Shown here: one piece after another, positions 19,164-47,209 of the stretch
Numbering within the stretch: position 1 is the stretch's first letter
How the letters are laid out: each line of letters starts with the position of its first letter
Assembly: GCF_003334385.1 (NCBI RefSeq)
Contig: NZ_QOWN01000005.1
Length of the DNA stretch: 64,000 nt
DNA from: Escherichia coli
GTDB lineage: Bacteria; Pseudomonadota; Gammaproteobacteria; Enterobacterales; Enterobacteriaceae
Reading direction: 5' to 3' (one strand)
Notes under the pieces: model-generated
The model's database searches: none
The model's input: the letters and a program-made list of their open reading frames with translations, nothing else
Told to the model about the DNA's origin: nothing
Program-made: the position numbers and the translations under genes

Positions 19164-19198
19164 TTGCTGGTTGATAACAAAATCACTACACTAACGCC

Positions 19199-19291
19199 GT
19201 TCTCAACGGGGTGCCACGCGTACGCGTGCGCTGAGAAAATACCCGTCGAACCTGATCCGGATAACGCCGGCGAAGGGATTTGAGGCTCCTT
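19199..19291 (+). promoter_or_regulatory. sroA: TPP riboswitch (THI-box; sroA) in thiBPQ leader
   Basis: THI-box core ggggtgccacgcgtacgcgtgcgCTGAGAaaatACCCgtcgAACCTGATCCGGATAAcGCCGGCGaAGGGA upstream of thiB; boundaries approximate. Confidence 0.75.
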
Positions 19292-19326
19292 CTCAAGTCC
19301 TTTGCCACTCTTTTTTGAGGTGCAAA

Positions 19327-20310
19327 GTGTTAAAAAAATGTCTGCCCCTGCTGTTGCTGTGCACAGCGCCCGTTTTCGCTAAACCCGTTCTGACTGTTTA
19401 TACCTACGATTCCTTCGCCGCCGACTGGGGGCCTGGTCCGGTGGTTAAAAAAGCCTTTGAAGCCGACTGTAATTGCGAACTGAAACTGGTGGCGCTGGAA
19501 GATGGCGTTTCGCTTCTCAACCGTCTACGGATGGAAGGCAAAAACAGTAAAACCGATGTGGTGCTGGGGCTGGATAACAACCTGTTAGACGCCGCCAGTA
19601 AAACCGGACTGTTTGCCAAAAGCGGTGTGGCAGCGGATGCCGTTAACGTTCCCGGCGGCTGGAATAATGACACTTTCGTACCGTTTGATTATGGCTACTT
19701 CGCCTTCGTTTATGACAAGAACAAACTGAAAAACCCGCCACAAAGCCTGAAAGAACTGGTTGAGAGCGATCAAAACTGGCGGGTGATTTATCAGGATCCG
19801 CGCACCAGTACACCGGGGCTGGGTCTGTTGCTATGGATGCAAAAAGTCTATGGCGATGACGCCCCACAAGCCTGGCAGAAACTGGCGAAGAAAACGGTCA
19901 CGGTCACCAAAGGCTGGAGCGAAGCCTACGGCCTGTTTTTAAAAGGTGAAAGCGATCTGGTACTGAGTTACACCACCTCTCCGGCTTATCACATTCTCGA
20001 AGAGAAGAAAGATAACTACGCCGCCGCGAACTTCAGCGAAGGTCACTATCTGCAAGTGGAAGTCGCCGCCCGCACCGCTGCCAGCAAGCAGCCGGAGCTG
20101 GCGCAAAAATTCCTCCAGTTTATGGTTTCTCCGGCTTTCCAGAATGCGATCCCAACCGGCAACTGGATGTATCCGGTGGCAAACGTCACGCTGCCTGCCG
20201 GTTTTGAAAAATTGACCAAACCCGCAACCACGTTGGAGTTCACGCCAGCCGAAGTGGCGGCACAACGTCAGGCATGGATTAGCGAATGGCAACGCGCCGT
20301 CAGCCGTTAA
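19327..20310 (+). CDS. thiB: Thiamine ABC transporter periplasmic binding protein
   Basis: ORF track frame from TTG 19315; GTG 19327 after gagg RBS gives (M)LKKCLPLLLLCTAPVFA signal peptide; 327 aa. Confidence 0.9.
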   Translation: MLKKCLPLLLLCTAPVFAKPVLTVYTYDSFAADWGPGPVVKKAFEADCNCELKLVALEDGVSLLNRLRMEGKNSKTDVVLGLDNNLLDAASKTGLFAKSGVAADAVNVPGGWNNDTFVPFDYGYFAFVYDKNKLKNPPQSLKELVESDQNWRVIYQDPRTSTPGLGLLLWMQKVYGDDAPQAWQKLAKKTVTVTKGWSEAYGLFLKGESDLVLSYTTSPAYHILEEKKDNYAAANFSEGHYLQVEVAARTAASKQPELAQKFLQFMVSPAFQNAIPTGNWMYPVANVTLPAGFEKLTKPATTLEFTPAEVAAQRQAWISEWQRAVSR

Positions 20311-21896
20311 TTCCCGGCTGGTTAATTCCAGGTGTAAGCGCCACCACGCTGGTGGTAGCGGTTGCGCTGGCGGCGTTTCTCGCCCTGTGGTGGAACGCGC
20401 CGCAGGATGACTGGGTGGCAGTCTGGCAGGACAGCTATCTGTGGCATGTGGTGCGCTTCTCCTTCTGGCAGGCGTTTCTCTCGGCACTGCTCTCTGTCAT
20501 ACCCGCGATATTCCTCGCCCGCGCGCTCTATCGCAGGCGCTTTCCGGGTCGGCTGGCGCTGTTGCGTCTGTGTGCAATGACCTTGATCCTCCCGGTGTTG
20601 GTCGCTGTTTTCGGCATTCTTAGCGTCTATGGTCGCCAGGGCTGGCTGGCAACACTCTGCCAATCGCTCGGTCTGGAGTGGACCTTTTCGCCCTACGGCC
20701 TGCAAGGTATTTTGCTGGCCCATGTGTTTTTTAATCTGCCGATGGCGAGCCGCTTATTACTCCAGGCACTGGAAAACATCCCCGGCGAACAGCGTCAACT
20801 TGCCGCCCAGCTTGGGATGCGTAGCTGGCATTTTTTCCGCTTCGTCGAATGGCCGTGGTTACGGCGACAAATCCCGCCGGTTGCTGCGCTTATCTTTATG
20901 CTCTGTTTCGCCAGCTTCGCCACCGTGCTATCGCTGGGGGGCGGTCCGCAGGCGACCACTATCGAGCTGGCAATCTATCAGGCGCTGAGTTACGACTACG
21001 ATCCTGCCCGCGCGGCAATGCTGGCGCTGCTCCAGATGGTGTGCTGCCTCGGGCTGGTGCTGTTGAGTCAGCGATTGAGTAAGGCCATTGCGCCCGGCAC
21101 CACGCTGCTGCAAGGCTGGCGCGACCCGGACGATCGTCTGCATAGCCGCATTTGCGACACGGTGTTAATTGTGCTGGCGCTGCTGCTGTTGCTGCCACCG
21201 TTACTGGCGGTGATCGTCGATGGGGTAAATCGCCAGTTGCCGGAAGTGCTGGCACAACCGGTGCTGTGGCAGGCGCTGTGGACCTCGTTGCGTATTGCGC
21301 TGGCGGCAGGTGTATTGTGCGTAGTGCTGACCATGATGCTGCTATGGAGCAGTCGCGAACTGCGGGCGCGGCAGAAAATGCTGGCGGGTCAGGTGCTGGA
21401 GATGAGCGGCATGTTGATCCTCGCCATGCCGGGGATTGTGCTGGCTACCGGCTTCTTTTTACTGCTCAACAACACTATCGGCCTGCCACAATCTGCTGAC
21501 GGCATTGTGATTTTCACCAATGCGTTAATGGCGATCCCTTATGCGCTGAAAGTGCTGGAAAACCCGATGCGCGATATCACCGCCCGCTACAGCATGTTAT
21601 GTCAGTCGCTGGGGATTGAAGGCTGGTCACGCTTAAAAGTGGTGGAGCTGCGCGCCCTGAAACGTCCACTGGCGCAGGCGCTGGCCTTTGCATGCGTGCT
21701 GTCGATTGGTGATTTTGGCGTGGTGGCGTTGTTCGGTAACGATGATTTCCGCACCCTGCCGTTTTATCTCTACCAGCAAATTGGCTCCTATCGCAGCCAG
21801 GACGGTGCGGTCACCGCGTTAATTCTGCTGCTGCTCTGTTTTCTGCTGTTTACCGTGATTGAAAAACTACCGGGGCGAAATGTTAAAACTGACTGA
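20286..21896 (+). CDS. thiP: Thiamine ABC transporter permease
   Basis: 536-aa polytopic membrane [20 protein letters not shown]; start overlaps thiB end by 25 nt. Confidence 0.92.
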
Positions 21897-22578
21897 TATC
21901 ACCTGGCTTTACCACCATTTGCCGATGCGTTTTAGCTTAACGGTGGAACGCGGCGAGCAGGTGGCGATCCTCGGGCCAAGCGGCGCGGGTAAAAGTACCC
22001 TGCTGAATTTGATCGCCGGTTTTCTGACGCCAGCCAGCGGTTCGCTGACTATCGATGGCGTAGATCACACAACTATGCCGCCGTCACGCCGTCCGGTGTC
22101 GATGCTGTTTCAGGAGAACAACCTGTTCAGCCACCTGACGGTCGCACAGAACATCGGGCTGGGGCTAAATCCGGGATTGAAACTGAACGCGGTACAGCAG
22201 GGGAAAATGCACGCTATCGCCCGCCAGATGGGGATTGATAATTTAATGGCGCGGTTACCGGGCGAGCTTTCCGGCGGTCAGCGACAGCGAGTGGCGTTAG
22301 CGCGTTGTCTGGTACGCGAACAGCCGATTTTATTGCTCGATGAACCGTTCTCTGCGCTCGATCCGGCGTTACGTCAGGAGATGTTGACGCTGGTGAGCAC
22401 GAGCTGCCAGCAGCAAAAAATGACGCTATTGATGGTGTCGCACAGCGTGGAAGATGCGGCGCGGATCGCCACGCGCTCGGTAGTAGTCGCCGACGGGCGC
22501 ATCGCCTGGCAGGGTATGACCAATGAGTTGTTGAGCGGTAAGGCGAGTGCTTCGGCACTATTGGGGATTACGGGTTAG
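21880..22578 (+). CDS. thiQ: Thiamine ABC transporter ATP-binding protein
   Basis: ORF track frame 21859..22578; 232-aa protein from [13 protein letters not shown]; Walker [13 protein letters not shown] signature LSGGQRQR. Confidence 0.92.
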
Positions 22579-22584
22579 TATGCA

Positions 22585-22676
<92 letters not shown>

Positions 22677-27972: not shown

Positions 27973-27989
27973 GTAGCCGCATCCGGTAT

Positions 27990-28415
27990 GTAACACCTGA
28001 TGCGACGCTGACGCGTCTTATCTGGCCTACACGCTGCGATTTTGTAGGCCGGATAAGCAAAGCGCATCCGGCATTCAACGCCTGATGCGACGCTGGCGCG
28101 TCTTATCAGGCCTACGCGCTGCGATTTTGTAGGCCGGATAAGCAAAGCGCATCCGGCATTCAACGCCTGATGCGACGCTGGCGCGTCTTATCAGGCCTAC
28201 GCGCTGCGATTTTGTAGGCCGGATAAGCAAAGCGCATCCGGCATTCAACGCCTGATGCGACGCTGGCGCGTCTTATCAGGCCTACGCGCTGCGATTTTGT
28301 AGGCCGGATAAGCAAAGCGCATCCGGCATTCAACGCCTGATGCGACGCTGGCGCGTCTTATCAGGCCTACACGCTGCGATTTTGTAGGCCGGATAAGCAA
28401 AGCGCATCCGGCACG
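27990..28415. repeat. Tandem array of five ~85-bp BIME units (paired inverted REP sequences) between araA and araD
   Basis: Unit boundaries about 27995/28080/28165/28250/28335; units 2-4 are identical 85-mers (gcctgatgcgacgctggcgcgtcttatcaggcctacgcgctgcgattttgtaggccggataagcaaagcgcatccggcattcaac), units 1 and 5 carry a few substitutions. Confidence 0.9.
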
Positions 28416-28426
28416 AAGGAGTCAAC

Positions 28427-47201: not shown

Positions 47202-47209
<8 letters not shown>

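Follow-up and report, generated by a model that had tools for sequence, protein, structure and literature searches.

The embedded thiP start codon and the 25-nt overlap with thiB in Escherichia coli

In the thiBPQ operon of Escherichia coli, the permease gene thiP begins within the last eight codons of thiB, raising the question of whether such a long overlap ties permease synthesis to that of the binding protein or whether the start codon has simply been assigned too far upstream. The initial annotation of the window analyzed here, a stretch of 64,000 nucleotides of E. coli chromosome from contig NZ_QOWN01000005.1, had put forward both readings, either tight translational coupling or an alternative downstream start of thiP. 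From the comparison of orthologous junctions, we conclude with considerable confidence that thiP truly starts at ATG 20286 and that the overlap is an old, hard-to-change arrangement, with the mode of initiation proposed below. The feature as such is ordinary and already known, since an entry “b0068 thiB / b0067 thiP -25” is found in the E. coli table of PMC10666635 (Huber et al. 2023). What has been added is a small comparative point on the age of the arrangement, namely its occurrence in two states, -25 or no overlap.

Anatomy of the junction and the start codon of thiP

In several strains, RefSeq places the genes, all on the plus strand, at window positions 19327–20310 for thiB (tbpA, periplasmic thiamine-binding protein, 327 aa), 20286–21896 for thiP (ABC transporter permease, 536 aa) and 21880–22578 for thiQ (ATP-binding subunit). 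The operon leader bears a TPP riboswitch (19197–19296; Rfam RF00059, 65.9 bits, E = 2.3e-12, likewise a riboswitch in RefSeq) which controls thiB translation. Both overlapping reading frames are real homologous coding genes, with ThiB matching PDB 2QRY through its last residue and ThiP having 4938 homologues at E ≤ 0.001, in agreement with RefSeq. The ATG at 20286–20288, embedded in the Glu-Trp codons GA[A TG]G of thiB, opens thiP and the TAA at 20308–20310 closes thiB, resulting in an out-of-frame overlap of 25 nt. In the junction sequence, GAATGGCAACGCGCCGTCAGCCGTTAA, the thiB frame reads AGC GAA TGG CAA CGC GCC GTC AGC CGT TAA, and positions 20286–20310 are dual-coding for W-Q-R-A-V-S-R-stop of ThiB and M-A-T-R-R-Q-P-L of ThiP. 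A weak Shine-Dalgarno (SD)-like GGA (20276–20278) is separated from the thiP ATG by a spacer of 7 nt. As the thiP frame is closed by a TAG at 20280–20282, two codons 5' of the ATG, a start further upstream is not possible. The thiBPQ segment is 100% identical to that of strain JKHS016 and is matched in all 5426 complete E. coli genomes.

Among the 11 overlaps in the window, the one between thiB and thiP is the longest. The junctions with which it had originally been compared were correctly described (murE/murF and pdxA/rsmA at -4, surA/pdxA at -1) and are indeed shorter. Three further overlaps exceeding 4 nt, thiP/thiQ (-17), ftsI/murE (-14) and kefF/kefC (-8), had not been mentioned. The 14-nt overlap of ftsI/murE (1628–1641) and the 8-nt overlap of kefF/kefC (47202–47209), both on the minus strand, are associated with strong SD sequences of murE (-8.0 kcal/mol) and kefC (-10.3 kcal/mol), unlike the situation at thiP.

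The region just 3' of the thiQ stop (22586–22626) contains a REP-like segment of 36 nt that is found at roughly 10 sites in each genome and also on a plasmid; behind it lies a terminator-like hairpin with a T-run (22608–22626). The araA-araD intergenic region (27973–28426) comprises 454 nt here versus 114 nt in JKHS016 and 284 nt in K-12-like strains; it is made up of sequence with about 15 copies in each E. coli genome and looks like a variable REP/BIME-type array.

For assessing the thiP start, 80 orthologous loci from Enterobacterales were compared, one per species, with ThiP identities of 75–97% and from genera including Escherichia, Citrobacter, Salmonella, Klebsiella, Kosakonia, Buttiauxella, Cedecea, Mixta, Brenneria and Erwinia. 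The overlap is exactly 25 nt in all 80 species, and conservation of the upstream start codon, the check suggested in the initial annotation, was found throughout, with RTG at the aligned position in 80/80 loci (ATG in 73, GTG in 7). The claimed overlap starting at ATG 20286 is thus borne out by the sequence, by RefSeq and by all of the species compared. Within E. coli, 4617 of 5399 genomes share 99% identity or more over 80 nt at the junction. Judged from this constancy, the overlap is neither a product of chance nor an annotation artefact. An in-frame stop precedes the thiP start at -6 or -3 in 54 of the 80 species.

The RTG is preserved whatever ThiB residue is encoded by the embedded codon, which is variable (E, A, Q, T, S or V across the 80 loci). 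Where this thiB codon is four-fold degenerate (n = 41), it ends in A in 36 loci and in G in the other 5, never in C or T, compared to a background A use of only 8–14% when these codon families occur at other positions of thiP; the 41 cases are spread over several codon families but, the species being related, do not count as independent events. Mean column entropy is 0.26 in the overlap versus 0.87 in thiB-only and 0.81 in thiP-only sequence, a low value as would be expected for dual coding. Furthermore, thiP codons 10–22, located after the thiB stop and before the next candidate start, show entropies of 0.78/0.37/1.29 at the three codon positions, a periodicity like that of codons 23–60 (0.62/0.38/1.21), and are therefore evidently translated.

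The next canonical start in the thiP frame is GTG 20352 at codon 23, and initiation there or elsewhere downstream would imply that the annotated start is wrong and that a functional overlap does not exist. Such a reading could draw on the experience that very long annotated overlaps often are start-site errors, a finding of Palleja 2008 as cited in PMC10666635, and on the presence of ATG or GTG at position +66 in many of the 80 species. In addition, the literature did not yield an experiment in which the thiP N-terminus or initiation site had been mapped directly, and thiP, thiB or b0067 were not found in the supplements of three start-site studies (TRAINSPOTTER N-terminomics, TetRP, Giess 2017). 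However, a usable SD is lacking at GTG 20352 (-0.6 kcal/mol; the nearest AGGTG is 17 nt away), and this codon lies inside the region encoding transmembrane helix 1 (TM1; 20322–20390, about residues 13–35, with a Kyte-Doolittle window maximum of 2.24 at residues 17–35), of which about 13 residues, roughly half, would be left. In three species (L060, L065 and L066), there is no other ATG, GTG or TTG within the first 50 thiP codons. With a conserved upstream start and such a replacement at codon 23, the junction does not show the signs of a misannotated long overlap. Since RTG is kept independently of the ThiB residue and codons 10–22 are coding, the downstream start is rejected on comparative grounds and has, in our view, hardly any chance of being correct. 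With the annotated start being right, the ThiP N-terminus and the first transmembrane helix are also as annotated.

Other candidates in the vicinity of the start were considered as well. An ATT at codon 9, corresponding to a start of the -1 type (TAATT), was dismissed, as this codon is not conserved. In the reading frame of thiP, a mini-ORF of two codons, ATG-GAT-TAG, occupies 20274–20282, leaving 3 nt up to the thiP ATG. Its TAG is replaced by a sense codon in some loci from Citrobacter and Kosakonia (L010, L012, L016, L020 and L063), where an ATG at -12 could give a ThiP extended by 4 residues and an overlap of 37 nt.

The ThiB tail and the length of the overlap

Why the overlap comprises exactly 25 nt becomes apparent from more distant ThiP relatives, the genes of which were located on contigs in 11 lineages (a further relative, P0008, was not placed on any contig). 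Exactly 25 nt were found again in six lineages with ThiP identities to E. coli of 34–59% and GC contents of 26–64%, among them one reduced genome of 575 kb and one lineage with a GTG start; as five of these six were picked by their N-terminal motif, 6/11 does not represent a frequency of the -25 state. The other five lineages do not show an overlap, the distance between thiB and thiP amounting to 0, +4, +7, +21 and +30 nt. All 11 share the ThiB tail R..W[I/T/L/M]..W-x-x-[A/V]-x-[S/T/I]-x-stop (consensus W-x-x-A-x-S-x-stop), and in all 11 an A/GTG still extends across the codon before Trp, whether the overlap is used or not. This start codon is formed by the last base of the codon preceding the invariant Trp and the TG of TGG. 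As one base, seven codons and a stop codon add up to 25 nt, the length of the overlap is dictated by the conserved tail of ThiB. The stop codon itself is TAA in E. coli and TAA, TGA or TAG elsewhere, always at the same position.

Lineages either use the embedded start, with the tail then specifying the first eight ThiP residues M-A-x-R-x-Q-P/S-L in the second frame, or have a thiP start located behind the thiB stop. The ThiP N-termini of the five lineages without overlap are unrelated. Because the N-terminal motif M-A-x-R-x-Q-P/S is confined to overlap-using lineages, it is the ThiB tail read in a second frame. In its strict form, it is present in 9 of 131 full-length cluster representatives, and 45 of the 131 begin with M-[A/V]. 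A neighbor-joining tree of ThiP, calculated with the N-terminus excluded, has the -25 lineages scattered beside those without overlap; the -25 state has thus repeatedly been lost or gained. For the same reasons, the tree and the origin of the motif in the other frame of the ThiB tail, M-A-x-R-x-Q was discarded as proof of a single ancient origin.

Since both reading frames constrain the same 25 bases, the junction barely changes. A distance of -4 or -1 was not found at thiB/thiP among the 80 Enterobacterales and the distant lineages sampled; only two states were encountered, -25 with the start in the context of the conserved Trp codon or no overlap. At the neighboring thiP/thiQ junction (21880–21896), 77 of the 80 Enterobacterales species have an overlap of 17 nt, and the distant lineages have 4, 8, 8, 8, 14, 17 or 23 nt. 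Across the genomes compared, the thiP/thiQ junction thus drifts in length, whereas the thiB/thiP junction does not.

The lineages without overlap (L088, L092 and L093–L095) still carry the embedded A/GTG in the Glu-Trp codons of ThiB. In L088 (1560–1605), the frame opened by it is closed by TGA, and a different frame is used for thiP, which begins 4 nt past the thiB stop. In L092 (1570–1605), a GTG follows directly after the thiB TAA in the same frame. In Haloferax volcanii, HVO_0020-0022 are annotated as thiB, thiP and thiQ and have spacings of +9 and +103 nt, also without overlap (PMC10666635 supplement).

Overlap length and translational coupling

That a longer overlap implies tight coupling, as had been proposed for this junction, is not borne out by published measurements. 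In the reporter series of PMC4538824, the coefficient of re-initiation peaks at 0.022 for a distance of -4, is about 0.007 from 0 to +25 and declines beyond -10, being 11.6-fold below the 0 to +25 level at -25, and the authors recommend overlaps of at least 25 nt for avoiding re-initiation coupling. In a survey of 1,695 species (PMC10666635), -4 is at least ten times as frequent as the distances outside -8 to +6. Long overlaps in the phase to which -25 belongs are several-fold rarer than those in the other one, which the authors attribute to selection for re-initiation having converted the rarer phase to -4 or -1. With -25, the thiB/thiP distance lies outside the range of about -8 to +6 nt by which termination-reinitiation (TeRe) pairs are defined in that study. 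A published experiment on coupling at the thiB-thiP junction was not found in the literature.

Tight coupling by termination-reinitiation would require that ribosomes finishing thiB slide back some 20 nt and begin anew at the thiP ATG, with ThiP synthesis strictly following that of ThiB. The overlap together with the weak SD of thiP, the occurrence of both products in one complex (“CMPLX yes” in the table of PMC10666635) and the proposal of bidirectional scanning after termination (PMC12548453; PMC4538824) are compatible with this mechanism. However, it conflicts with the low re-initiation measured at -25 and with the rarity of such distances, and the conversion to -4 or -1 expected under selection for re-initiation is not seen in any of the sampled lineages. 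We therefore regard it as improbable.

Alternatively, coupling could be brought about by RNA unfolding. The SD of thiP is weak, with a calculated energy of -3.5 kcal/mol for its duplex with the anti-SD, ranking 38 among the 49 starts of the window. For the 120-nt junction RNA of E. coli, a fold of -45.5 kcal/mol is predicted (z = -2.67), in which GGAUUAGCG (20276–20284), comprising the SD-like GGA and the spacer, pairs with CGUUAAUUC (20305–20313) from the thiB stop region, the AUG also being partly paired. In this case, the thiP ribosome-binding site would be locked in a hairpin (20276–20313), with the thiB stop region as its 3' arm, and would be opened only by thiB-translating ribosomes, relaying translational control by the TPP riboswitch from thiB to thiP. 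The same fold is predicted in Salmonella, and translation of thiB is the main target of the riboswitch, with debate as to how far it affects mRNA levels (PMC11487190). On the other hand, outer-stem pairs are broken without compensation in 20–35% of species (68 sequences), paired cells are not in excess in these sequences (87.8% versus 87.1% in shuffles), covariation beyond shuffles was not detected (28 out of 500 shuffles attained the score) and a consensus fold of the junction has only -2.96 kcal/mol. Moreover, the -25 arrangement persists in a genome of 26% GC for which the hairpin is not predicted, and the stability of the E. coli fold may be a by-product of the conserved coding sequence. 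Without covariation and with a trivial consensus fold, the hairpin was rejected as a conserved element; being lineage-local, it may act in E. coli and close relatives but is apparently not what maintains the overlap. Taken together, the hairpin as the gate to thiP translation remains a tentative and rather unlikely proposition. The SD-like GGA is invariant in 81 sequences, and its bases belong to ThiB Trp-Ile codons; as these and the Trp codon explain both GGA and TGG, neither motif argues independently for a ribosome-binding site, and the invariant GGA was not accepted as proof of a selected SD.

The explanation we favor, a genuine start codon in an overlap fixed by the ThiB tail, would go along with a low level of thiP translation, mainly by fresh initiation at the weak GGA site inside thiB. 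Ribosomes completing thiB may assist by opening local RNA structure, while re-initiation by terminating ribosomes should add little at -25. This assignment of fresh versus coupled initiation is inferred from reporter studies on other sequences. Some coupling between thiB and thiP remains plausible, since the SD is weak and the hairpin predicted for E. coli would be opened by thiB-translating ribosomes. Generally, ABC importers make their binding protein in excess, and a low amount of ThiP relative to ThiB would fit.

More speculatively, the embedded start might be kept precisely because thiP translation then depends on thiB translation, either via opening of the ribosome-binding site or via low-level backward re-initiation. 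We consider this unlikely. If true, a riboswitch whose action is confined to thiB translation would govern the transporter as a whole and would not need transcription termination, which would help to explain how a translational riboswitch governs the downstream genes of an operon. Retention or re-use of the exact embedded start in distant lineages would then reflect selection for this relay, beyond the constraint imposed by the ThiB tail.

Comparison with known overlaps

The importance of the thiB/thiP junction outside good annotation practice is small. It provides an example of a conserved protein tail fixing the length of an overlap and corrects a tempting inference, as according to the available measurements a longer overlap means weaker re-initiation.

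Among known arrangements, the junction resembles the long same-strand out-of-frame overlaps of operons (-10 to -60 nt; “phase 2” with -7, -10, -13 and so on in PMC10666635), where thiB/thiP is listed with -25. As in these cases, the genes are co-directional and the start lies within the upstream ORF, in the phase of -1 and -4. Unlike the path proposed for “phase 2”, however, thiB/thiP remains in the rarer phase, and none of the sampled lineages shows a shortening to -4 or -1. With termination-reinitiation pairs joined by ATGA or TAATG (for instance trpB-trpA and, in this window, murE/murF, pdxA/rsmA and surA/pdxA), it has in common the overlap of stop and start regions, a weak downstream SD and products assembled in one complex, but its distance of -25 is not within -8 to +6, and reporter re-initiation there is even further below that at -4 than below that at 0 to +25 (PMC4538824). 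Finally, it is similar to overprinted protein termini in that ThiP residues 1–8 are a second-frame reading of the ThiB tail, but just eight codons are involved, so that neither a new protein nor a new domain has resulted.
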